Shown here piece by piece: positions 2,429 to 54,142 of a stretch of 57,072 nt of DNA. A model generated the notes under the pieces. That model worked only from the letters and a program-made list of their open reading frames with translations. It made no database searches and was not told the origin of the DNA. The first letter of the stretch is position 1; each line of letters begins with the position of its first letter. Made by a program: the position numbers and the translations under genes. This DNA comes from an uncultured Bacilli bacterium. Lineage in GTDB: Bacteria; Bacillota_I; Bacilli_A; RF39; UBA660. The stretch lies in NCBI GenBank assembly GCA_947623995.1, contig CANQIN010000001.1, positions 1-57,072 on the forward strand, given 5' to 3'.

Positions 2429-3433
2429 TCATTCATTTAAAACTTTTTCTACTTCAATAATTAATTCTTCTTTTTTTGGAATATAATATGTGTAAGTTGA
2501 CGCAAAAACATTATTAGAAAGTCCACCTAAAGCATAATCAATAGCAATATTTTTTTTACTTTTACACAAAATAATGCCAATTGGTTTATTATCATCTTTA
2601 TCATTAATTTCTTCATTATAATAATTTAAATACATATTCATTTGACCTGCATATTCAGCCTTCATTTGACCAATTTTTAAATCAATTAAAACATAACATT
2701 TTAAAATTTTATTGTAGAAAACCATATCCACATAGTAATGAATATTTCCCAAAGTTATTCTTTGTTGTGTTCCAACAAACATAAAACCTTTTCCTAGCTC
2801 AAGTAAAAATTCTTCAATATGCTTTACTAATTTTTGTTCTAAATTTTTTTCTAAAATAGGTTTATTTTCTTTAACTCCTAAAAATTCAAATACATATGGT
2901 TCTTTTAAAACATCTAAAGGAGTATTTAAAGTTTGCCCAACTTTTGATAATTCATAAACTTTTTCTTTATTCTTTTTACCATCAGAAAGTAATAATCGTT
3001 CAAATAAAGATGTTTCTAATTGTCTTTTTAATTCTCTTACACTCCAATTAGAATTAATACATTCCTTTTCATAAAAGTTACGTTCATCAATATTTTCAAT
3101 ACTTAATAGTTCACAATAATGTGACCAACTCAATTTAACAGACAGTGTCTGTTGTTTTGGATATTCTAAATAAAATCTTCTCATATACTGTAAATTAGAA
3201 ACCGAAAATCCTGGTCCCAAAGTTTTTCTTAATTCTTTAGATAATTCTTTTAAAATTTGTTTACCATATTCAGCTTTAATATTACCATTTTGTTCATTTT
3301 CAACAATAATTTTTCCAACACTCCAATAAGCATATAACATAACATTATTAACTTCATATGATACTTTTTTTCTACTACTTAAAATAATTTTTTTAATTTC
3401 TTCTACCATTTCATAGTTATTATTATCTAGCAT
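2429..3433 (-). CDS. YhcG/DUF1016-family PD-(D/E)xK nuclease-like protein
   Basis: N-terminus is typical of DUF1016 (YWSVGKIIVENEQNG...AEYGKQILKELSKEL). C-terminal D...(D/E)xK-like core is YVDMVFYN...LIDLKIG. Start set at the ATG at 3433, preceded by AAAGGGGGA. Confidence 0.75.
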   Translation of the reverse strand: MLDNNNYEMVEEIKKIILSSRKKVSYEVNNVMLYAYWSVGKIIVENEQNGNIKAEYGKQILKELSKELRKTLGPGFSVSNLQYMRRFYLEYPKQQTLSVKLSWSHYCELLSIENIDERNFYEKECINSNWSVRELKRQLETSLFERLLLSDGKKNKEKVYELSKVGQTLNTPLDVLKEPYVFEFLGVKENKPILEKNLEQKLVKHIEEFLLELGKGFMFVGTQQRITLGNIHYYVDMVFYNKILKCYVLIDLKIGQMKAEYAGQMNMYLNYYNEEINDKDDNKPIGIILCKSKKNIAIDYALGGLSNNVFASTYTYYIPKKEELIIEVEKVLNE

Positions 3434-15333: not shown

Positions 15334-17703
15334 TTATATCTTTATTATTTGTTGTTCGTTATCTTCCACTATTTCATAACCCAATTTTTCATATGTCTTT
15401 TTTCTTTTCAAAAACATATTACGAGTTTTAGCAAAATTATCATCAACATAATCATAAATTAATATTTCTTTTTTATTATCATCTTTCCTATGTAATCTTC
15501 CTGCATATTGTGTAACTCTAGTTTGTCCAGAAATAGGCATAGTCAAGAATAATACATCAAGCTTTGAATCATCGAATCCCTCACCGATATAAGAACCTGT
15601 AGCAACTATAATTTTATTACTACCAATCTCATTTATTTGATTAATTAATTCTTCATAATTTTTAAGTAATGTTTTACCTATTCCACCATAATATTTGAAA
15701 ATATTATTTGTATATTTAGATAATTTATCATAAACATAATTCATAAGTTCTAATCGTTCAGTTAAGACTAAAATATTTTTTCCATTTTCATATTCTTTTT
15801 TTATATCTTTAATAATATTTTCACTACGTATTACATCTTTTGCTATTAAATCATTAATTTCATTTAATTCATAATTATCAACATTAGGATTAGTAAAATT
15901 TAAATGACTTTTCTTCACAATTACTTTCATTGGTATATTAAGTTCTTTATTAAATTTTAAACTATCTACTTTATATCTAATATCACCGCATTGCATTTTT
16001 ATGATAGGAGTATGCCCATTTTCTCTTTCAGGCGTAGCAGAAATTCCGTAAACATATCTAGCATTTCCCGTATTTATCGCTTGTTCAAAAGTATATGCTG
16101 CTGTATGATGACACTCATCGATAATAATCAGCCCATAATTTTTTGCAATATCTAGTACTTCACCATTATTCCATAATGACTTTATACTAGCTACATCAAT
16201 CACATTAGTAATATTCTTTTTTTTACTACTTATTTCTCCAACTTCTTCTACATTTAAAAATTCTTTTATTCTATCTTTCCATTGATTAAGTAGTTGCAAT
16301 TTATTTACTAAAATTAAAGTATTAACTTTACGTTCTTCTATTATTTTACACCCTATAACAGTTTTACCAAATCCTGTGGGTGCACATAATATCCCATTGT
16401 CATACTTTAGTAAATTATCAAGTGCTAGTTGTTGTTCATCCCTTAATCTTCCATTAAAAACAATATCAATTTTATTTCCTTTAAAACGCTTATCTGTCTT
16501 TATTATTTTAACATTATTCTTTTTGCATAAACTTTCTAAATATTCATATGTTCCTCTTGGCAATTTCAAATATTTATCATCTTCTTTACTGCAATCAATT
16601 ACCATTGGAATATTATATACTGACATTCTTAACTTTTGTTTTTTGTAAAACTCAGGATTGGCAAAAGTAGCAAGTCTTCTAAAACTGTTTTTAACAACTC
16701 CACTAAGATTAGCTTTATCAATGTATACCATATCATTTAAAATTACCTTAATACTTTTAGGGTATTCTATATTATTTTTGCATTTTGCTATTACTTCTTT
16801 TTTCATATCAACTACTTCATGACCTATATCGATAGTTTCATTAGATAGTTTTTCAATTTTTTCAAAAATTTCTTTTTCAGTTAATTTATGAATAGAATTT
16901 AAATACTGTATTTGATTATCAATCTTAATAAAATTTCTATCAACAAATAATGTATTTCCATATTTAGACGGTTCATTTTGAAATGGTAATGCGATTAGAT
17001 TTCCATACCCACCTTTTGGTAAGGTATCTTGATTAGGAAACATTCTATCAAATGATGAAATAGAAATATTCGATATTTCCATCGTTTTAGATAATAATAA
17101 ACTACCTAATTTTCGTGCTGTTAATGCTTTAATATTTATATCAAAAAAAATCCAAATATGAATTCCATTTCCTGATCTACTGCGTTCTATAGCAATTGGT
17201 ATTTCATATTCATCACAGATACTAGCGAATGCTAATACGTCACTTTTAATATCATTATTAGTATTTTTATTATCAAAATCTAAAGATAGAAAGTAGCAAG
17301 TATCATTTTCTAGTAATGGATAAATTCCTATTGGATTATTTCCATACATGTGATTATAGATAACTTCCTTTGATAAAGGCTTATTTTCCCTGTACTGGCA
17401 ATTCTTACATTTTTTGCCCATCGTTTTATTGCATACACCTTGCTTCCACTCATTTACACATGCTGGGATATAATATTTAATTTTAGGATTATTTTTATCT
17501 ATTGATAAATATGGATAAACATCATCTCTACCTCTAAAGTAATTCATAAATACTTTGACTTTTTCTTCTCTAGTTAAAGATAATTCAGTGTCATTAATAA
17601 TTGGTTTATTCAACTTATCTTTTAATTCTTCAATTTCAATTTTCAATTTTTTTATTTCTAATTCTTTCTCATATATTAAATTTACAATTTCATTATTGTT
17701 CAT
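15334..17703 (-). CDS. Archaeo-eukaryotic primase (AEP/PrimPol-like) domain fused to an SF2 (DEAD/DEAH, DECH) helicase
   Basis: N-terminal coiled coil. AEP motifs: LDFD (D142/D144), SGNGIHIW (H182), SFDR (D219), and a Cys cluster CVNEW..C..(7)..C..C. Helicase motifs: APTGFGKT (~441), DECHH (~529), SATP, GRLHR. The N-terminal REEKVKVFMNYFRGRDDVY pattern resembles what I recall being called the TOTE conflict-system AEP domain. Confidence 0.8.
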   Translation of the reverse strand: MNNNEIVNLIYEKELEIKKLKIEIEELKDKLNKPIINDTELSLTREEKVKVFMNYFRGRDDVYPYLSIDKNNPKIKYYIPACVNEWKQGVCNKTMGKKCKNCQYRENKPLSKEVIYNHMYGNNPIGIYPLLENDTCYFLSLDFDNKNTNNDIKSDVLAFASICDEYEIPIAIERSRSGNGIHIWIFFDINIKALTARKLGSLLLSKTMEISNISISSFDRMFPNQDTLPKGGYGNLIALPFQNEPSKYGNTLFVDRNFIKIDNQIQYLNSIHKLTEKEIFEKIEKLSNETIDIGHEVVDMKKEVIAKCKNNIEYPKSIKVILNDMVYIDKANLSGVVKNSFRRLATFANPEFYKKQKLRMSVYNIPMVIDCSKEDDKYLKLPRGTYEYLESLCKKNNVKIIKTDKRFKGNKIDIVFNGRLRDEQQLALDNLLKYDNGILCAPTGFGKTVIGCKIIEERKVNTLILVNKLQLLNQWKDRIKEFLNVEEVGEISSKKKNITNVIDVASIKSLWNNGEVLDIAKNYGLIIIDECHHTAAYTFEQAINTGNARYVYGISATPERENGHTPIIKMQCGDIRYKVDSLKFNKELNIPMKVIVKKSHLNFTNPNVDNYELNEINDLIAKDVIRSENIIKDIKKEYENGKNILVLTERLELMNYVYDKLSKYTNNIFKYYGGIGKTLLKNYEELINQINEIGSNKIIVATGSYIGEGFDDSKLDVLFLTMPISGQTRVTQYAGRLHRKDDNKKEILIYDYVDDNFAKTRNMFLKRKKTYEKLGYEIVEDNEQQIIKI

Positions 17704-26448: not shown

Positions 26449-28167
26449 TTAAAAAGCGAGAACGAGACGAAAGCTGAAGGTGCTCGACGCATGACCTTTT
26501 TCGTAATCGAAATAGAACAGACCAGCACCTGTACCATATGTGCAAAAGCCGCCACGAACGACCCATGGAGCGCTCGAAGCGACAAGCCATGCTTCATCGT
26601 TATACCAACTTCCTACATTTCTTGATTGAGTTAAATATTTCATACTTTGAAATGGTCCCATTTCTTTTGTTGCATCTCCTAAGAAACCTCGATTGTATGT
26701 TGCACTACTTGTACTATATTCGTATTTATCAAAGAACCTTTCATCAGTTGGTAAGTCTATTCCTTCCGTTACTTCTAAAATATCAGGATTTACTCCAACA
26801 TCTCCAAGACTACAAGATGAACATACTAATTTTCCATTAAATCCTGAATTAGCAGCATTATTACGTCCAGACGACAAATTTCCTGTTTTTCCATCGCCAG
26901 TTGAATTATCATCTAATCCAGCCATCATATATTCCCATACACCACCTGACATATCATAGATTCCTGTAAAATTACTTGTGGTGCTGGCTACCACACTTGC
27001 TTTATTAAAATAATTAGTATTATACGTTCCATCATCTCCAGGTTTAGTTACTCCTCCATATTCATTACAAGCTTCTGGGGTATTACTGCATAAAACATTT
27101 GTAGATGTATATCCTGTGGTTGGTTCATTAACTGCGGCATAGCCTGTTAAATAATTGGAATTATTATTTATTCTCACACTTTCATGACTTCCATATTTAC
27201 TATGTTGTAAGTATGCTACAGCTCCCCATTCCGTGTTTTTCATCATATGACTATTTAAAGATTCTTCATAATGTAAACCAACCGTGTATGCTTTTGCTAC
27301 TTGAATACTTCGCCATGAATAAACATTTGGCTTTATTATTACTTTATCTGCTGCTTCGATTGAGGCTGCTTCATCTGCTGGATTTACTTGGGCAGCTCCT
27401 GTACTTCCAGCTCCATCATATCCGGTTTCAAATTTACCAACCCAAATACCGTTAGTATCAAATGAGGTAAATGCTGGATGTGTTAACCATTGGCCTACTG
27501 AATTTCCAGTTTGAGCTTCTGCATCTTTTGTTTCAAATATTACATTTATTATTTTTTCTTTATTTGTTTTTGTTGTTAAACCATTATAATTGGCTTCATC
27601 AAATATTTGATATCTGTATCTAGGTATCCATACAAAATAACTTTCAATATCAGCTTCATCTATTGACTCGTTCTCTCCTGGGTCACTTTTTCCTTCTCTT
27701 AAGATTACGGCATTTGCCCATTGTTGGTTTTCATAGTCATACCATTTTTCTTTTTCACTCGCTCTTGTAACTTTACCATTTTCTTCATTTATTACGATTG
27801 GTATTAGCTTACTTCCTAATACTGGATCTGCTCCATTTAATTCTCTATCTATATATTTATTATTAAAATATAAAGTACATTTAGTCTTACTTTTACTTAA
27901 ATTATTTATTAATGGTGCCCATTCTTCTTTATTCCATATTATACTTGCTCCATTATCACATTCACCATCTATATATACTAATCCTTCACTATTTTCTTTA
28001 CTTGGCATTTCTTCTACTTTTTCATTTCCTTTATAAAATGCTATATCTAAATTTTCATTACTTTTTCCATTTATTAATTTTTTTTCATAGTTTGTAAATG
28101 TTAATATATTTAAAACACTTATCAAAATTATAATACTTATTAACAATATACTTAATCTTTTTTTCAT
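26449..28167 (-). CDS. Large exported protein with a C-terminal FGE-sulfatase (SUMF1/formylglycine-generating-enzyme-like) fold domain
   Basis: N-terminal signal/anchor. Motifs W(L)THPAFT, MSGGVWEYM, VVRGG..., and terminal FSFRLVLAF are spaced like the FGE-sulfatase domain. The N-terminal module has the C..G....W......W.......C.LYF pattern. Confidence 0.6.
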   Translation of the reverse strand: MKKRLSILLISIIILISVLNILTFTNYEKKLINGKSNENLDIAFYKGNEKVEEMPSKENSEGLVYIDGECDNGASIIWNKEEWAPLINNLSKSKTKCTLYFNNKYIDRELNGADPVLGSKLIPIVINEENGKVTRASEKEKWYDYENQQWANAVILREGKSDPGENESIDEADIESYFVWIPRYRYQIFDEANYNGLTTKTNKEKIINVIFETKDAEAQTGNSVGQWLTHPAFTSFDTNGIWVGKFETGYDGAGSTGAAQVNPADEAASIEAADKVIIKPNVYSWRSIQVAKAYTVGLHYEESLNSHMMKNTEWGAVAYLQHSKYGSHESVRINNNSNYLTGYAAVNEPTTGYTSTNVLCSNTPEACNEYGGVTKPGDDGTYNTNYFNKASVVASTTSNFTGIYDMSGGVWEYMMAGLDDNSTGDGKTGNLSSGRNNAANSGFNGKLVCSSCSLGDVGVNPDILEVTEGIDLPTDERFFDKYEYSTSSATYNRGFLGDATKEMGPFQSMKYLTQSRNVGSWYNDEAWLVASSAPWVVRGGFCTYGTGAGLFYFDYEKGHASSTFSFRLVLAF

Positions 28168-28193
28168 CTATAATCACTCTATTCTATAGAGTA

Positions 28194-28225
28194 ATTATAA
28201 CCCTTGACCCCCCCCCCTATGTCAA
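28194..28225 (-). promoter_or_regulatory. Promoter of the 572-aa exported protein, with a G10 tract inside the -35/-10 spacer
   Basis: Minus strand reads TTGACA (28225-28220), 20-nt spacer TA-GGGGGGGGGG-TCAAGGGT, TATAAT (28199-28194), 26 nt before the ATG at 28167. Confidence 0.55.
28208..28217. repeat. Homopolymeric C10/G10 tract
   Basis: Ten consecutive C on the plus strand, counted directly. Flanked by the inverted hexamers CTTGAC/GTCAAG. Confidence 0.95.
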
Positions 28226-28263
28226 GTAATTGCTATTATTTTAGACCACATTTCGTATAAAAT

Positions 28264-30849
28264 TTATACTCCTAATCTTATATGTTTCTTCTTTAAAATA
28301 ATCTTTCTTAAAAAATCAATTGGCACAACGGAAATACTTAATAAAATTACTAAAGTTAATTCAAATGGTGTTAAACCAAAAGTTCTAAATACTACCCCAC
28401 CTTTATAAATCAAAAATATTTGAACACTTGCTATAAAAATAATCGTTATAACAAATACAATATTTTTTCTTAAATGGGCAAATAAATTTAGGCGATAAGT
28501 TCTTGAATTAAAAGCATTGCCAAGACCGATAAAAATAAATAAAGCAAAATATGCAGTCATTAAATATTTATCTTCAATATCAAATCTAATTAAAGATTTA
28601 ATCCAAGGTGATTTTAAGAAAAAGATACACAAAGTGGCCGAGTAAATACTATTCCAGATAATTTGAGAATACATGTATTTATTTATAATTGGTTCATTTT
28701 TATCTTTAGGTGCTTCTTCCATTGTTTCATCTAGAGCTGGTTCAAATGAAAAAGCAAGTCCCGCAAAAGTGTCCATTATCATATTTATCCATAACATTTG
28801 AATAATTGTTATTGGGGTATTTACTCCTATAAAAGGACCAACTATTGATAAAAATAACGCACAAAAGTTACAAGTTAATTGATAAATAATAAATTTTCTA
28901 ATACTTTTAAAAATAGTTCTTCCATATAAAATTGCTTTACTAATTGATAAAATATTATCATCTAAAATAACAATATCAGCAGAAGCTTTAGCAACCTCAG
29001 TCCCACTACCCATGGCAAAACCAACATTTGCTTTTTTTAATGCTGGTGCGTCATTCACGCCATCACCAGTCATTCCCACAATTAAATCTTTATTCTCTGC
29101 TATTTTAACTAATCTACTTTTATCTTTAGGTAAGGCTCTTGCAATAACTTTAATATTTGGTAACATTTTCTCTAACTCAAAATCATCATAAGCATTTAAT
29201 TCATCACTTGTTAAAACTAAATCATTTGATGAAGTAACAATACCTACTTCCTTAGCAATAGAACTAGCTGTTTCTTTAGCATCACCTGTTATCATTACAA
29301 CTTGAATACCTGCTTTTTTAATTTGCTCTACGCCTCTTTTAGCTTCAGGTCTTAGCTCATCTTTAATCGTTACAAAACCAATAAAAATTAAATCATCAAT
29401 ATTATTAGTATTACTATATGCAAGACTTATTACTCGACATCCTTTATTAGTTAAATTTCTAATTTGATTTTGAATAGCTTTTTTATTAATAAAAAGTTTT
29501 TCTTCACCATTTTTCATTAACATTTTACTACATTTAGAAATTATCTTCTCACTAGCTCCTTTAATATATAATATCTTTTTATTATCTAATAAAACACTCG
29601 CCGAAGAATATTTTAAATTACTATTAAAAGGTGTTTTATCTAATACTTTACAATTTGTATTTATTTTTCTATTTAAAAAATTTAATAATGAGCGGTCTGT
29701 CGCATTACCCCCAATAACTTTATCATTTGAAAAAATACTACTATTATTATAATAAAGATTATTATTTAAATGATTTGCTAAAGCTTGATATTTTAAAACA
29801 TCCCTACAATTTTTAAAAGAAGTTAATTCTCCACAAGTAAAGTTTATAACTTCTAATTTTCCTTTAGTTAATGTTCCTGTTTTATCAGTAAATAAAATAT
29901 TTAATGAACCTGTTGTTTCAATTCCCACTAATCTTCTAACTAAAACATTATCTTTTAACATTTTTTTCATATTACTTGATAAAACTAAAGTAATCATCAT
30001 AGGTAATCCTTCTGGTACGGCTACAACGATAATTGTTACCGATAAAGTTAAAGAATAAATTAAGTAATCAGCCATTTGATGAACATTTGTAAGTGTATTT
30101 ATAATTTCAGTCATATTAAAATGATTATTTATAACTATAACTGAAAATAAATATGAAAGTGTAACCAACACAGCCCCTATATAACCAATTTTACTTATAG
30201 TTTTAGCTAACCCCCGAAGTCGTAATTTTAAAGGACTTATTGGTTCAGCATCTTGAATTTCTTTAGCTAAAGATCCATAAACGGTTTTATCACCTACTAA
30301 TGTAACTTTCATTTTAGCATTACCTTCATAAACAACTGAACCTCTTAAAACTTTATCATTAAGATTTTTCTTAGCTTCTTTTGATTCCCCATTTAAACGA
30401 GATTCATCAACAGATAAGTTTCCTTCTATTAAAATACCATCAGCTGGAATAGCATCACCTGATGAAAGTAGGACAACATCTCCTACAACAACTTCTTCTA
30501 ATGTAATTTCCACTATTTTATTATTTCTAATTACTTTAACATAAATTTTTTCACTTTCTTCTTGTAATCTTTTAAAAGCTTCTTCACTTCCATATTCACT
30601 AATAGTCGAAATAAAAGAAGATAGAAAGATGGCAATTAAAATTCCTAAAGTTTCAAACCAATCAAAATCTCTAAATAAAAAAACGATTTTAATTGCTAAA
30701 GCGATTAACAATATTTTAATAATTGGATCTCCTAAAGATTCAATTAATAATCTCATAAAACCTTTAGACTTAATTTCGGTTAAAGCATTACTACCATTTT
30801 TCTTACGACTTTCATCTACTTCTTTGTCTGTTAATCCCGTCCATTTCAT
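28264..30849 (-). CDS. Calcium-translocating (PMCA/type IIB-like) P-type ATPase
   Basis: DKTGTLT phosphorylation site, TGDA, GDGVNDAPALKKA, about 10 TM helices. N-terminal LTDKEV...NGSNAL is typical of Ca-ATPases. Confidence 0.85.
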   Translation of the reverse strand: MKWTGLTDKEVDESRKKNGSNALTEIKSKGFMRLLIESLGDPIIKILLIALAIKIVFLFRDFDWFETLGILIAIFLSSFISTISEYGSEEAFKRLQEESEKIYVKVIRNNKIVEITLEEVVVGDVVLLSSGDAIPADGILIEGNLSVDESRLNGESKEAKKNLNDKVLRGSVVYEGNAKMKVTLVGDKTVYGSLAKEIQDAEPISPLKLRLRGLAKTISKIGYIGAVLVTLSYLFSVIVINNHFNMTEIINTLTNVHQMADYLIYSLTLSVTIIVVAVPEGLPMMITLVLSSNMKKMLKDNVLVRRLVGIETTGSLNILFTDKTGTLTKGKLEVINFTCGELTSFKNCRDVLKYQALANHLNNNLYYNNSSIFSNDKVIGGNATDRSLLNFLNRKINTNCKVLDKTPFNSNLKYSSASVLLDNKKILYIKGASEKIISKCSKMLMKNGEEKLFINKKAIQNQIRNLTNKGCRVISLAYSNTNNIDDLIFIGFVTIKDELRPEAKRGVEQIKKAGIQVVMITGDAKETASSIAKEVGIVTSSNDLVLTSDELNAYDDFELEKMLPNIKVIARALPKDKSRLVKIAENKDLIVGMTGDGVNDAPALKKANVGFAMGSGTEVAKASADIVILDDNILSISKAILYGRTIFKSIRKFIIYQLTCNFCALFLSIVGPFIGVNTPITIIQMLWINMIMDTFAGLAFSFEPALDETMEEAPKDKNEPIINKYMYSQIIWNSIYSATLCIFFLKSPWIKSLIRFDIEDKYLMTAYFALFIFIGLGNAFNSRTYRLNLFAHLRKNIVFVITIIFIASVQIFLIYKGGVVFRTFGLTPFELTLVILLSISVVPIDFLRKIILKKKHIRLGV

Positions 30850-32684: not shown

Positions 32685-34352
32685 TTACAATTCTTCTACT
32701 AATTTTAATTCATTACCAACAAATACTACTAAATATTTTAAAGGATCGCCAAGTCTTTCATCTTTACTATAATTTTCTAATTGAGTTTTTCCTTCTTCTA
32801 TTTTTTCTTCTAATAATTCTTCATTATAATCTTTTTTCTTGATATATTTTAATTCTATTATTATATTTTTTAATATTGTATTTTTTCTATCTAAATATAT
32901 ATCTATATATCCATTATTACATGGATATTCACTATAGACATTAAAGTTTTTATTATTTATTAAATATGCAAATAATAAATATTTTAAACTTTTTTCTTCT
33001 AATTTTATAAAATCTCTATTATCTAATTTTTTTAATACATCATTTACATAATTACATAATCTATCTATTTTCCCTCTTTTTAATTCTTCATTTATTTCAC
33101 TAAATATTAAACTATCATATCCTAAATCTTTTTCATTTAATTTTTTTAAAAAATAATTACCATATAATACTTTCATTACTTCATTTGGCACTTTAAAATA
33201 ATAATCACCATATTCATCTGTTTCAATAGTTAAATAACCAAAATAATATAAAATACTTATTATATCATCACGGTTAAAATCAACTAATAAATCAAACTTT
33301 ATTTTTAAAATCCCTTTTACTTTTTCATTGATTATTATTTCATTTAATAATTCTTTATAGAAACTATTATTTTTTAATTCAATTAAATTATCTATTTTTC
33401 CAGAATTAAAAGCAATATTACTATCCATTAAATTTTTAGGAATACTTTTATATTTTTGATAAAAATCTAATAAATACATTACTAATGTTGCATTAAACAC
33501 TTTTTCTTTAGCTTCTTCATTAAATAAATAACCATCATAATTTTCAATCATAATATTTTTTATTTCTTCACGCTCATTTTCTTCTACTACTTCATTTAAT
33601 AAATTATCTACTTCCTCATGAGTTAATCCTATCATACTATTAAATTCTTCATAATTTGATATATTTGTTGCTATATTAAATCCTGTTGTCATACTATCTA
33701 ATGTTATTGGACATATTCCTGTTGCAAAAAATCTTCCAACTACTCCTAAACCAATATACTCTTTTATTACAGCATAAAATGCTTTAATGAACCCTTCATT
33801 TCCAACAATATTTTTAAAACGCTCTGCATTACCTTCTAAAATAGCATTAGTAAAATTATCATATTCATCTATTATAATATATAATTTGCAGTCTAAATCT
33901 AATGATCTAAATTCACGTAAAAAATTCATTATTATTTGATTTGTATTTACTCCTTTTATTTCAATATTTGTTTTATAATAATCATTAAAATTTTCAATTC
34001 CATCAATAACTTTATTATTAAATTCTTCTTCTAACTGTTTTTCATTTTTATTTGCAGATGTCAATCCTGAAAAATCAAACTTTAAAACATAATAACTATT
34101 TCTTTTTTCAGTTGGATATTGATGAATATATAATCCATTAAATAATTTATCAAATAAATCTTTACTATTTATATCATAATAATAATACATCATACTAGTA
34201 AATAAACTTTTGCCAAATCTTCCTGGTCTTAAATAAAATAATGTTTTACCTGCATTTTCTAATTTTTCTAAGTACATTGTTTTATCTATATATATATAAT
34301 ATTCTAATATTAAATCTTTATAATTTATAATGCCATATGGTATCTTTTTCAT
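32685..34352 (-). CDS. Predicted AAA-ATPase (PF09820-like) with C-terminal PD-(D/E)xK nuclease (PDDEXK_9-like) domain
   Basis: MKKIPYGIINYKDLI...YIDKTMYLEKLEN...YLRPGRFGKSLF is the hallmark N-terminus of this family. C-terminal YIDIYLD...IIELKYIKK is a D-ExK core. Confidence 0.75.
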   Translation of the reverse strand: MKKIPYGIINYKDLILEYYIYIDKTMYLEKLENAGKTLFYLRPGRFGKSLFTSMMYYYYDINSKDLFDKLFNGLYIHQYPTEKRNSYYVLKFDFSGLTSANKNEKQLEEEFNNKVIDGIENFNDYYKTNIEIKGVNTNQIIMNFLREFRSLDLDCKLYIIIDEYDNFTNAILEGNAERFKNIVGNEGFIKAFYAVIKEYIGLGVVGRFFATGICPITLDSMTTGFNIATNISNYEEFNSMIGLTHEEVDNLLNEVVEENEREEIKNIMIENYDGYLFNEEAKEKVFNATLVMYLLDFYQKYKSIPKNLMDSNIAFNSGKIDNLIELKNNSFYKELLNEIIINEKVKGILKIKFDLLVDFNRDDIISILYYFGYLTIETDEYGDYYFKVPNEVMKVLYGNYFLKKLNEKDLGYDSLIFSEINEELKRGKIDRLCNYVNDVLKKLDNRDFIKLEEKSLKYLLFAYLINNKNFNVYSEYPCNNGYIDIYLDRKNTILKNIIIELKYIKKKDYNEELLEEKIEEGKTQLENYSKDERLGDPLKYLVVFVGNELKLVEEL

Positions 34353-50644: not shown

Positions 50645-53600
50645 CTACTTCCATGATGGCCCTATTCCATCTTCACGACTTAAAACACAATTACCATTAG
50701 TAATACAATATGACGAATCTAACCATAAAGTAAATTTTGTAGTTTCTTCTCTTGGTTTTAATGAAGTAAAATACTTATTAGTTGTATTATTTAAGAAGGT
50801 ACTTATACATTTTACACTATACGTAATACCATTATAAGTTACTTGTTCACATTGTAATGCATTATTACTATTTAATTCGCCATTACCAAATTCATAACTT
50901 TCAGGCATTGTAGTATTAGAATATGATCCAGCATCCTTATTAAATTGTCTTATAGCACTTAATTGAGCAGGCGTTAATGTATATGAATATTCTGCATTTT
51001 CATATATTGTATCTCCAGCATCCTCAATTTGAGATTTAGTATATTCTGCTTTAACTGTACTCCAATTATACCCCTCTTTACGACAATCAATTGAATTTCC
51101 ATCTTCACATAAATTAGGGAATAGACTATTTAATGAAACAGTACGATATTTAAATGAAGTATTTTCTCCATCAAATATACAATTCTTACAAGTATCTGCA
51201 TCTTTAGTAATAATACAATCATCACCATTACATGATACATCACACTCAGGACAATTATTTACATAAGCACATACATATCCCGTATCTTGACTTAATATAC
51301 CATTATTTTCATTATATTTAGTACATTTTTTTCCATCAGGTAATTTATCATACTCAGTTAAAACACTTACCTGATCTTTTACACCAACTAAACGTCCTAA
51401 TTCACCAGTTTGATTAGACTGTCCAATTTTACTAAATTTCAAAGTAAATGGAAATGCCCCTTTACCAGTTTTAAGCTCTACTGGTAAAGCAGTATCTGGA
51501 AGTCTAGTCCATAAGCAGTCTTTATAAGTAGGATCATTAGAATTCTCACATATAGTTCCAGTTTTAACAGTTCCATATTGATGATATGTGCTAAAGTTTT
51601 GACTTGGAGTATAATAAGCATCTTTTGTTACTGTTTTTTGAATCCATTTAGCTAAACTTAATTTAAATGTATTTGCACTACACCCAGTATTGTTACATGT
51701 AACCGATACAGCATTTTTAAATATATTATCAGGTAATGTATTCTCATTAACTTCAAATTTTTTACTACTATCAACACAATTATATTGTTCATCAGTCTCG
51801 CCTAAACAATAAATATTATCTATTTTAGTATTTACATCACCGACTCTTGAAAATTTACCAGTACCAGATTCTCCATTAAGAAGTTCACTGTAATTATTAT
51901 ATTCAAAACTTATTTCTGGATCAAAATTCATATTATTTTCCCATGTTGAACATTTCTTAAAGGCAGCAACAGAATCAATTACTTGTTGATTAGTTTTTTG
52001 ATATTCTTCTAAGAATTTATTTTTAAATCCTTCAATCTCAGTCTTAGAGATATTAGCTTCAACAGTTTCAGTTGATGTAGTATTTTTAGAATAATCATAA
52101 ACTACATATGTCCAAGTAAATGCTTTTTTAACATTATTTTCTTCATTTGAAATACTTTTAACTGCACTACTTTCAAATAATGTATTCCATTTATTCCATT
52201 CATTCCAATCAGCTGCTAAATCACGATTTAAACTATTTAATTCAGATTCAAATCCTTCAACATCAATTGGTTTATCTGGATTAGTTGCTGAGCTAATATA
52301 ACAATTTCTTGTTCCCGTAATTTTAGTTGATAATGTAAAGTATCCACCACTCATTGAATATCTTGCCGTTGGTACAACAAATTGATAATTTTCATCACAC
52401 CATACTTTACAATATTTATTATTATTAATTTCTGTAGTTGCCTCATATGAAGCATTAGTTTGATCTACTGAATCAATAACGCATCTCTTAACTGGATTAA
52501 CACTACTATTACAATCAGTTTTTTCTAAGTTTATGTCACTAATCGAACCATCCACATTATTATTAGTATCAAAATCATTACATGTACCAGGAACCGAAAC
52601 ACTAGCATTACAATTTGGACATTTTTCTTCATATTCATCACACGCTGGATCATCAGGATCTTCTTCACATGTTTCTTTTAATGTAGGACAATAACATTCA
52701 TCTAAATATTCACTTTCACTACATTCTTCTCCACCTTTATTAGGTTCTTTTTCTTTACAATAATATTTATTTTCATCATTTTCTTCAGGTGTTTCACATA
52801 TATGTAAACATTCTTTATGATATTTATCTTCATTACATACTTCACCATCCTGGCAATAATAAGTTGGTTTACCAGTATTATCATAATCGATATCACAAGA
52901 AGAATTTGCATTTTCACATTTATCTGGGCATTTTAATTCTATTACCCTTGGATCATCTTTTTTAATAATTTGTGAAGTGGTTACATCGTCTACAGTTTCA
53001 TAATAAATATAATCTCCAGTAAATTTTCCGTCTTTTTCTTCACATAAACATTGATCAGATTCATAATTGACAGGAATTTCAGTTTGAATAATATATGAAT
53101 TATTAAAATCTTTAACCAATAACATTTTTTGATGATATGATTGACCAATACTTGGTGTCAATAACATTAAATATGCAGCTGGATTTCTTTGATCAACATA
53201 AGCAGTAGTTACTTTTAATCCATATTTTTGATTTTTTGTTTTACTTGATTCACCATTTGATGTATCTATTTCAACAACATAACGACCTCTATTATCAGAT
53301 ACTTTCTTTTTTGATAAAACGTTACAAGTAAAGCCATACTCACATGTTATATCAAATTTTTTCCATTTTACACTTTCTGGTGCTTTACCAACTTTAGGAG
53401 TTACGTCAAATTTCAAAGTAACAATATTTCCTTCAACTTTGCTGTTAACTAAAATGAAATCCCATTCATCAGTCCATATTGTACCATCATTAACCAAATC
53501 TTCATAAGTTGCAGTTTTATTTTGTATTTTATTTCCATATTTTACAGCATTTGTTGAAATTCTTTGCGCAGCTCTAACATATCTATTATTTTGATTCCAA

Positions 53601-54142
53601 TAAGAAGAATTTTTACGATTATCTTTAGTACTTGTATAAACATATGGATAATTTAATGACGTTACCCCACCAGTATCAAGTTTACCGTAATAATACTCTA
53701 ACCATCTAAAAGTCAAAATACCTACAACTCTACTTTCAGTTGTTGGATTAGCTTTAATTATACCTTCATTTACCATTTGTTGATATGCAACTGTAGCTGC
53801 AACATCAAAAGCTTGATTTGAGCCTTTCTTTTGAGGTGTAATAGTCCTTTCACATATATGAGTTCCATTATTTCTATATGCATTTTTACCAGGAGACATA
53901 CAGAATGTTTGACCATAAGCATTTCTTGTAGTTTTAGATGTAAAAACATCATAAAAGTTTATTCCTCTTCCAGTTTCATTATTGCTACCCACATATCTCA
54001 AATAAAATGTTCCAACGGGACACTTATTGCCTGAACCATTACTAGCCTTAGTAACATTAAAATAAACATCAGCAGCACTAGCATTAATGCTAAGTACTGT
54101 AAATAATATTAAAGCAAACAATATTTTTTTCATTTTTTTCAT
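50645..54142 (-). CDS. 1165-aa secreted Cys-rich protein (candidate pilus-associated adhesin)
   Basis: Sec signal MKKMKKILFALILFTVLSINASA/AD. The central ~200 aa contain roughly 25 Cys in an acidic CxxC/CxC-rich stretch, and there is a second Cys cluster near the C-terminus. No LPxTG motif and no C-terminal TM helix. Confidence 0.6.
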   Translation of the reverse strand: MKKMKKILFALILFTVLSINASAADVYFNVTKASNGSGNKCPVGTFYLRYVGSNNETGRGINFYDVFTSKTTRNAYGQTFCMSPGKNAYRNNGTHICERTITPQKKGSNQAFDVAATVAYQQMVNEGIIKANPTTESRVVGILTFRWLEYYYGKLDTGGVTSLNYPYVYTSTKDNRKNSSYWNQNNRYVRAAQRISTNAVKYGNKIQNKTATYEDLVNDGTIWTDEWDFILVNSKVEGNIVTLKFDVTPKVGKAPESVKWKKFDITCEYGFTCNVLSKKKVSDNRGRYVVEIDTSNGESSKTKNQKYGLKVTTAYVDQRNPAAYLMLLTPSIGQSYHQKMLLVKDFNNSYIIQTEIPVNYESDQCLCEEKDGKFTGDYIYYETVDDVTTSQIIKKDDPRVIELKCPDKCENANSSCDIDYDNTGKPTYYCQDGEVCNEDKYHKECLHICETPEENDENKYYCKEKEPNKGGEECSESEYLDECYCPTLKETCEEDPDDPACDEYEEKCPNCNASVSVPGTCNDFDTNNNVDGSISDINLEKTDCNSSVNPVKRCVIDSVDQTNASYEATTEINNNKYCKVWCDENYQFVVPTARYSMSGGYFTLSTKITGTRNCYISSATNPDKPIDVEGFESELNSLNRDLAADWNEWNKWNTLFESSAVKSISNEENNVKKAFTWTYVVYDYSKNTTSTETVEANISKTEIEGFKNKFLEEYQKTNQQVIDSVAAFKKCSTWENNMNFDPEISFEYNNYSELLNGESGTGKFSRVGDVNTKIDNIYCLGETDEQYNCVDSSKKFEVNENTLPDNIFKNAVSVTCNNTGCSANTFKLSLAKWIQKTVTKDAYYTPSQNFSTYHQYGTVKTGTICENSNDPTYKDCLWTRLPDTALPVELKTGKGAFPFTLKFSKIGQSNQTGELGRLVGVKDQVSVLTEYDKLPDGKKCTKYNENNGILSQDTGYVCAYVNNCPECDVSCNGDDCIITKDADTCKNCIFDGENTSFKYRTVSLNSLFPNLCEDGNSIDCRKEGYNWSTVKAEYTKSQIEDAGDTIYENAEYSYTLTPAQLSAIRQFNKDAGSYSNTTMPESYEFGNGELNSNNALQCEQVTYNGITYSVKCISTFLNNTTNKYFTSLKPREETTKFTLWLDSSYCITNGNCVLSREDGIGPSWK

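Follow-up and report, generated by a model that had tools for sequence, protein, structure and literature searches.

A 57,072-nucleotide (nt) stretch of DNA from an uncultured Bacilli bacterium (contig CANQIN010000001.1; hereafter the window; GC content 25.7%) carries a run of ten G residues inside the spacer of a predicted sigma-A promoter, upstream of a gene for a 572-amino-acid (aa) protein. We propose that this run is probably a hypermutable tract that serves as a slipped-strand switch for a protein predicted to be membrane-anchored and surface-exposed, judging from the sequence of the locus and of its relatives. Positions 28225..28194, read on the minus strand, are TTGACA-TA-GGGGGGGGGG-TCAAGGGT-TATAAT, in which GGGGGGGGGG is the G10 tract. 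The elements of the locus are as follows.

28220..28225, minus strand: -35 hexamer TTGACA, a perfect consensus; TTGAC is invariant in an alignment of 17 cassettes
28218-28219, minus strand: TA between the -35 and the tract
28208..28217, minus strand: G10 homopolymer tract inside the spacer, the sole G/C run of at least 6 nt in the window
28200-28207, minus strand: TCAAGGGT between the tract and the -10
28194..28199, minus strand: -10 hexamer TATAAT, a perfect consensus; a TAnAAT-type hexamer is kept 7-9 nt past the tract in related cassettes
28168-28193, minus strand: 26-nt gap from the -10 to the ATG, which is at 28167
26449..28167, minus strand: open reading frame (ORF) of 572 aa, with an N-terminal hydrophobic anchor and a predicted beta-rich ectodomain; the gene downstream of the tract promoter

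The hexamers, the TA-G10 spacer and the distance to the ATG had been given accurately, in every detail, in a preliminary description of the locus. Both hexamers match the sigma-70/sigma-A consensus perfectly, and the spacer between them (28200-28219) is 20 nt long. A TGn extended -10 is not present at this promoter, positions -15/-14 being GG, and a reading of the window sequence found no TTGACA-like hexamer 16-18 nt 5' of the -10 in the G10 state. The promoter is missing from the list of a consensus promoter scan because that scan admits spacers of 16-18 nt only. On the plus strand the tract is a C10 run at 28208-28217, and the earlier statement that the window holds no other such tract is correct, as the next longest G or C runs are of 5 nt. 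A model of independent, identically distributed bases predicts ~7e-4 such runs in 57 kb, and extrapolation from the observed decay of run lengths predicts ~0.02. This rarity makes the tract unexpected by itself; the decisive evidence is comparative. Across the whole window the strands are asymmetric (9215 C versus 5435 G on the plus strand; 33 of 37 ORFs of at least 150 aa on the minus strand), and the G tract therefore lies on the G-rich, gene-coding and probably leading strand.

The comparison set consisted of 80 related genome loci (463 kb), in which loci carry L-numbers and family proteins P-numbers. In the window and these loci, we counted spacings of 12-25 nt between an exact TTGACA and a near-consensus -10, with G-tract spacers excluded. 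Ordinary promoters of the lineage show a sharp peak at a 17-nt spacer (21 cases versus a background mostly of 1-7), which persists when one -35 mismatch is allowed (144 versus roughly 60-110). Promoters with a G tract peak separately, at 20 nt. Because the lineage optimum is 17 nt, G10 puts the perfect hexamers 3 nt too far apart, and the excess of 3 nt claimed in the preliminary description thus stands. The spacers observed in the cassettes range from 16 to 22 nt, so that changes in length cross the host optimum.

The arrangement recurs across a family of related genes. The 80 loci contain 38 runs of at least seven G's, each lying on the strand that encodes the family gene, and no C run of that length occurs anywhere in their 463 kb. 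A tract is found at the 5' end of 28 of the 84 family genes for which upstream sequence was available. Twenty-two promoter-type tracts, the window's included, fit the pattern TTGAC[A/T/C/G], 1-3 nt, G9-13, 7-9 nt, TAnAAT; one of these cassettes (L012) was assigned by eye. The modal form is G10 with a 20-nt spacer (18 of 22). The part of the spacer that is not G sums to 10 nt in 20 of the 22 and is split 1+9, 2+8 or 3+7 by lineage. Because this sum is constant despite the different partitions, we conclude that the -35/-10 spacing is under selection, as would be expected if both hexamers act jointly as a promoter. In the 17-cassette alignment the invariant blocks are TTGAC, the tract and the -10; an upstream box, GTGGTYYAAART, and a palindrome that separates the -10 from the ATG are conserved as well. 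The closest relative (P0006 in L096; 79% protein identity) has TTGACA-TA-G10-TTAAGAGT-TATAAT. The promoter cassette predominates among the closest paralogs and is found behind many unrelated upstream genes; the window's own neighbour genes have no syntenic or orthologous context in the 80 loci. In L005 (~800-893), a frameshifted family copy is preceded by an ordinary promoter with a 17-nt spacer and no G tract.

Tract length differs between samples at the same locus. Such loci were found in other assemblies via identical family proteins.

P0025: G10 in L091, G9 in L092; one G is the sole difference over 4782 nt
P0032: G10 in L093, G9 in L094, G10 in L095; between L093 and L094 an insertion or deletion of G is the sole difference over 2410 nt
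Paralog next downstream of P0032: G10 in L093, G9 in L095
P0047: G10 in L103, G10 in L105, G7 in L104; L103 and L104 differ by five single-nucleotide polymorphisms and a GGGT deletion at the tract
P0040: G10 in both assemblies; no differences in the 120-nt upstream stretch, the part compared

The P0047 promoter in L103 and L105 is TTGACA-TA-G10-TTAATTGC-TATAAT, with a 20-nt spacer. In L104 it is TTGACA-TA-G7-TAATTGC-TATAAT, a 16-nt spacer with a TGn extended -10, in which the neighbouring T has also been lost. The tract varies far more than any other position at the compared loci, ranging from G7 to G13, and an allele close to the optimum occurs naturally.

More distant paralogs carry the G tract within the gene, a few codons past the ATG. 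At L015:1443, L035:1419 and L070:1167 and 3896, G10 truncates the product to 11-22 aa and G9 restores 526-997 aa; in one L070 copy, G9 restores 130 aa, to the contig end. The tract at L043:177 is G9 and in frame. The reading-frame test was clear in 5 of 11 intragenic cases, the other six being ambiguous because a second start codon beside the tract leaves a further frame open. The promoter and intragenic classes alike have G10 as their commonest length, and G10 is the OFF state in the clear intragenic cases, which suggests that G10 is a mutational equilibrium at which most copies would be kept low or off. By its sequence, the intragenic tract appears to be a translational form of the same switching strategy. 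At L071:2549 the product of a gene with an intragenic tract continues into a prepilin-like KGFTLIELLAV N-terminus.

We favour a model in which slipped-strand mispairing during replication would add or remove G's and shift the distance between the -35 and the -10. G10 would give a 20-nt spacer, 3 nt past the optimum, and with no alternative -35 or TGn the promoter would probably be weak or off. Contraction to G8-G7 would give an 18-17-nt spacer and restore a strong promoter. Each paralog would switch independently, producing a mixed population of surface types, and the cassette copies (box, TTGACA, G tract, -10, palindrome and ATG) would make up a set of contingency loci, most of them long, and so low, at any time. 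A slippage-prone spacer tract that tunes the promoter, with G10 too long and about G7 optimal, had been put forward in the preliminary description, and the conserved cassette, the 17-nt peak and the same-locus length differences all support it. We infer that the hexamers form a functional promoter, low or off at G10 and on at G7-8, and that the window copy varies as its relatives do.

Several observations weigh against this model. The tract lengths compared are those of consensus metagenome assemblies with 7-26x coverage, and for that reason each assembly gives the majority length of a sample and not that of single cells. Among ~30 promoter-type tracts there is one short allele, the G7 that has also lost a T. 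The comparison of tract length across strains that the preliminary description had called for gave differences at paralogous loci (G10/G9, G10/G7), but exact look-ups with the 572-aa protein and the SpoU gene found no second assembly of the window's own locus, and a metagenome scan with the locus pattern TTGACATA-N4-20-TCAAGGGTTATAAT returned six unrelated chance matches only. Because no second copy of the locus was retrieved, variation at the window copy is argued by analogy with the paralogs. A TGn extended -10, absent from the window copy, is present in many paralogs and would give basal activity independent of the -35, and read-through from the upstream ATPase gene could contribute transcription of the 572-aa gene. 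Finally, G10 with 20 nt is overwhelmingly the modal state, and a switch whose ON state lies three steps away from that mode is awkward. The arrangement might instead be a graded rheostat or a 20-nt promoter that depends on a factor, and a conserved box at a fixed distance upstream hints at such a factor.

28238..28249, minus strand: upstream box GTGGTCTAAAAT; its first base is 32 nt ahead of the tract and 24 nt ahead of the -35

The box GTGGTCTAAAAT has a single match in the window, where 0.09 would be expected by chance. It recurs in 13 of the 96 loci fetched and lies 32-33 nt upstream of the tract at the eight sites compared. It is possibly a factor-binding site, an activator site or an UP-like element. 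We also considered the box as an alternative -10 (TAAAAT) and rejected it, since its first T varies (CCAAAAT and TCAAAGT in L004) and it lacks a -35 at a distance of 17 nt upstream.

It is conceivable, if unlikely, that G10 with its 20-nt spacer is itself the selected functional state. A factor bound to the GTGGTYYAAART box or to the G tract would then realign the -35 and -10, in the manner of MerR-type promoters with 19-20-bp spacers or of Bordetella fim, and length changes would be occasional loss-of-function noise. MerR-type promoters with long spacers are known, and the predominance of G10, the total of 20 kept despite varied flank partitions and the fixed 32-nt distance of the box would all suit a factor-dependent promoter. 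So would a paralog in L007 (~3040-3100) in which the tract has decayed and a fixed 19-nt spacer with TGn remains (TTGACA-TAGGGGAAAGATCAAGTGT-TATAAT). However, the cassettes share no conserved dyad operator in the spacer, and the CTTGAC/GTCAAG dyad is specific to the window. The 20-nt length fits a MerR-type promoter, but neither a conserved dyad nor a MerR gene was found, the latter sought among annotated neighbours only. Intragenic tracts are modally G10 as well, and because G10 is there the truncating state, the mode looks mutational and not functional. There is also a G7 allele, its spacer 16 nt long, and samples that match over kilobases except at the tract show a pattern typical of hypermutable contingency tracts.

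The tract might instead be mainly a recombination or integration junction, an att-like target of a tyrosine recombinase or a site of cassette exchange between paralogs, with its position in a promoter secondary. We consider this improbable, yet it would account for two proteins, P0037 and P0020, each of which occurs in identical form in several assemblies with upstream sequences that part exactly at the tract. In the case of P0037, the usual arrangement of box, TTGACT and G10 is found in L088, and L087, L089 and L090 have two ATGTATACATAA repeats, then only GG and the same -10. In this alternative context (L087:1-77, L089:1-412, L090:1-77 and L003:1-100) two direct repeats, AAAATGTA(T/C)ACATAA, replace the box, the -35 and the G tract. 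The contigs of L087 and L090 start just before the repeats; L089, the only one of the three that extends further upstream, has the 3' end of a tyrosine-recombinase gene and a terminator before them. L003, with another paralog, shows the same junction of terminator, two repeats and GG. This context could reflect an integrated element or a promoter exchange at the tract. For P0020, L102 has the normal TTGACA-TA-G10, and L101 has GGTACGCTCT-G12 without a -35. Here (L101:564-760) an unrelated 68-nt segment and G12 stand in place of the box and -35, and the sequence further upstream is 97% identical to the region upstream of a different paralog (L093), so that L101 reflects either recombination with its breakpoint at the tract or a mis-join in assembly. 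Contig ends frequently fall within tracts (L006, L094), and mis-joins there are possible for this reason. Moreover, neither a recombinase homolog nor a ATGTATACATAA site was found in the window, and most copies have an intact promoter. Shuffling by a recombinase, as in Mycoplasma vsa or vpma, thus finds a recombinase-linked junction at paralogous loci only and nothing comparable in the window. A junction also leaves the -35/-10 geometry and the polymorphism of plus or minus one G unexplained.

A further element overlaps the promoter.

28168..28200, minus strand: 33-nt near-perfect palindrome or hairpin with a 15-bp stem, running from the -10 hexamer to the base preceding the ATG

Its RNA fold is a 15-bp stem with z = -3.96, and a Shine-Dalgarno-like GAGTGAT (28173-28179) sits in the 3' arm. 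The palindrome is conserved among 12 close paralogs; the changes there are confined to C-G/U-G, and true covariation is slight. A transcript starting ~7 nt past the -10 would lack the 5' arm, and read-through from the ATPase gene would contain it. Because only read-through transcripts would carry the 5' arm, the palindrome may insulate translation from read-through. Such read-through is possible since a scan for terminator-like sites between the ATPase gene and the 572-aa ORF (28168-28263) found none. More distant paralogs have a hairpin and T-run at the palindrome position (L037, L041, L057, L062 and L068).

Taken together, the junctions and the palindrome raise the possibility of a two-layer module. 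In such a module the G tract would be both a slippage rheostat and a crossover or integration point, the upstream halves would be exchanged or displaced by DNA bearing a tyrosine recombinase, and the palindrome would insulate the copies from read-through, leaving the Shine-Dalgarno free only if transcription starts inside it. We offer this as a speculation with rather low odds of being right. If true, it would be an unrecognised, Mycoplasma-like system of antigenic variation that spans a large gene family of uncultured Bacilli abundant in the gut.

The preliminary description had raised, as an alternative, a weak hairpin of the CTTGAC/GTCAAG hexamers. On this account it would terminate or pause ATPase transcripts and the promoter-consensus matches would be coincidental. 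We find this highly unlikely. The minimum-free-energy fold does contain the 6-bp stem with a 12-nt loop, but no U-run follows the stem and the terminator scan calls nothing there. The 3' arm is not kept even in the closest relative (GTTAAG in L096) and is unrelated sequence in others, whereas TTGAC and the -10 are invariant; the features of a Rho-independent terminator are thus lacking. The same cassette also stands behind many unrelated upstream genes. The suggestion that the tract is a chance or neutral feature, or an artefact of sequencing or assembly such as two-colour poly-G, draws on the error-prone nature of homopolymers and on the single occurrence in the window, but is refuted by the conservation of the tract in relatives: rabbit, human, chicken and mouse samples have yielded dozens of independent assemblies that carry it at the equivalent promoter site, invariably on the coding strand, and a circular metagenome-assembled genome (MAG) from metaFlye long reads (L071) also has it, in that case intragenic. 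An inverton with poly-G/poly-C inverted repeats was rejected as well, there being no C tract in the 463 kb.

The 572-aa protein starts MKKRLSILLISIIILISVLNILTF, a positively charged tip (KKR) followed by a hydrophobic helix of ~20 residues; no lipobox is present at this N-terminus. Its description as exported rests on that predicted helix. In an AlphaFold2 model of moderate quality (predicted local distance difference test score, pLDDT, 69; predicted template modelling score, pTM, 0.71; the C-terminal 85 residues, with pLDDT <50, unreliable), residues 2-24 form a helix that is followed by a beta-rich body. The ectodomain cysteines are invariant. The modelled helix and body and the invariant cysteines fit predicted surface exposure. 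The protein had been called FGE-like in the preliminary description. By eye, its RGG and SFR motifs look like those of the FGE-sulfatase / SUMF1-EgtB-PvdO family. The Pfam FGE-sulfatase profile (PF03781) gives a match over residues 375-419 only, at 18.7 bits, below the cut-off of 23.3, and it matches 10 of 37 homologs only, even at E <= 0.01; PvdO in the PDB matches the family profile at E = 0.62. No Pfam family scored above threshold for the protein, NCBIfam gave nothing significant, PDB sequence and profile searches gave nothing significant, and Foldseek of the model against the PDB returned noise only (best E = 0.19). We therefore regard the label as describing a weak resemblance without a fold match and not membership in PF03781.

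A family search yielded 6303 proteins at E <= 0.001 among 8000 candidates scored, often several per contig. The genomes matched are all MAGs of uncultured gut bacteria labelled Bacilli, Tenericutes or Erysipelotrichaceae or, in a few cases, Clostridia or Lachnospiraceae. Their sample sources are rabbit ('Lapin'), Hadza and other human, chicken and mouse (MGBC-labelled). Tandem arrays of paralogs occur in many of these MAGs; the window has a single family copy. In L009 and L013, paralogs follow in succession with short, operon-like gaps. In L048:787-3158, two family matches on opposite strands overlap at their 5' parts (plus from 1869, minus from 1887), which may reflect either an inversion that breaks within family genes or a chimeric assembly.

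Elsewhere in the window, four genes deserve mention, the first of which is the upstream neighbour of the 572-aa ORF.

28264..30849, minus strand: P-type cation ATPase gene, upstream of and co-oriented with the 572-aa ORF
15334-17703, minus strand: 789-aa protein with a TOTE conflict-system archaeo-eukaryotic primase domain and a ResIII/DEAD helicase domain; candidate anti-phage defence gene
32685-34352: AAA-ATPase-like/PD-(D/E)XK protein
50645-54142, minus strand: 1165-aa ORF with no Pfam match at E <= 0.001

Our literature searches turned up no account of the family nor, for these uncultured Bacilli, of simple-sequence phase variation. Nearly all known simple-sequence contingency loci are those of cultured pathogens, among them Neisseria, Haemophilus, Campylobacter, Helicobacter, Treponema and Mycoplasma. 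The same logic would now extend to uncultured, very low-GC commensal gut Bacilli of rabbit, human, chicken and mouse. If the predicted switch is real, the family could be a variable surface coat, or possibly a set of antigens exposed to phage or immunoglobulin A. The pattern TTGAC, 1-3 nt, G9-13, 7-9 nt, TAnAAT would then be a metagenome signature for such genes, and consensus MAGs would conceal population heterogeneity at the tract sites. The conceptual advance is modest because the mechanism is textbook; what is noteworthy is a family-wide cassette in abundant uncultured gut bacteria, its odd 20-nt mode and the junctions at the tract.

The nearest mechanistic parallels are porA of Neisseria meningitidis and tp0126 of Treponema pallidum, in which a poly-G tract lies between the -35 and -10 and the optimum is 17 nt (PMC7864442). 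At porA, shortening the 17-nt spacing abolishes transcription (PMC7864442). The predicted switch shares with these loci a G homopolymer in a sigma-70-type spacer before the gene of a known or predicted surface or outer-membrane protein, and it would share their slipped-strand changes and best activity at 17 nt (PMC7864442). It differs in its host, an uncultured low-GC gut bacterium of Bacilli or 'Tenericutes'-like type, in a mode 3 nt too long and in the repetition of the cassette before many paralogs, and it is known here from sequence alone. In T. pallidum, short tracts (<= 8 G) at tprE/G/J and tprL are permissive and longer ones silent; tprL is G9 in most cells, and its G8 promoter is more active than G10 (PMC7864442). 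As predicted for our family, these are surface-protein paralogs that each have a promoter poly-G, with most cells at a non-optimal length, G9 for tprL (PMC7864442). However, the tprL tract overlaps the -10 region, whereas the window tract lies in the spacer, and the gene families are unrelated. G tracts are also less anomalous in T. pallidum because its genome is GC-rich.

Among low-GC Mollicutes, Mycoplasma hyorhinis vlp genes carry poly-A in the promoter spacer, and Mycoplasma mycoides Vmm carries TA repeats there. These are membrane-anchored surface families in which every copy has its own repeat-spacer promoter and switches ON and OFF independently. The family described here resembles them as a multigene, membrane-anchored surface family, by prediction, in a low-GC Mollicutes-like organism with a repeat-bearing promoter per copy. 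It is unlike them in having poly-G in place of poly-A or TA, no lipobox, unrelated proteins and a modal spacer of 20 nt. In Campylobacter and Helicobacter, G8-G11 is the typical length distribution of tracts. Poly-G contingency loci of Campylobacter jejuni and Helicobacter are many per genome, both intragenic and intergenic (PMC8355987). The tracts there, like ours, are the only long G/C runs in an AT-rich genome. In Campylobacter, however, they are mostly intragenic, whereas here the -35/-10 spacer cassette predominates in the closest paralogs. By mechanism, then, the window's switch would belong to the porA/tp0126 type, and by biology it would be most like Mycoplasma vlp and Treponema tpr. 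What is distinct is an uncultured low-GC gut commensal as host, an unannotated family, the coexistence of transcriptional and translational tracts within that one family, and a mode three steps off the optimum.

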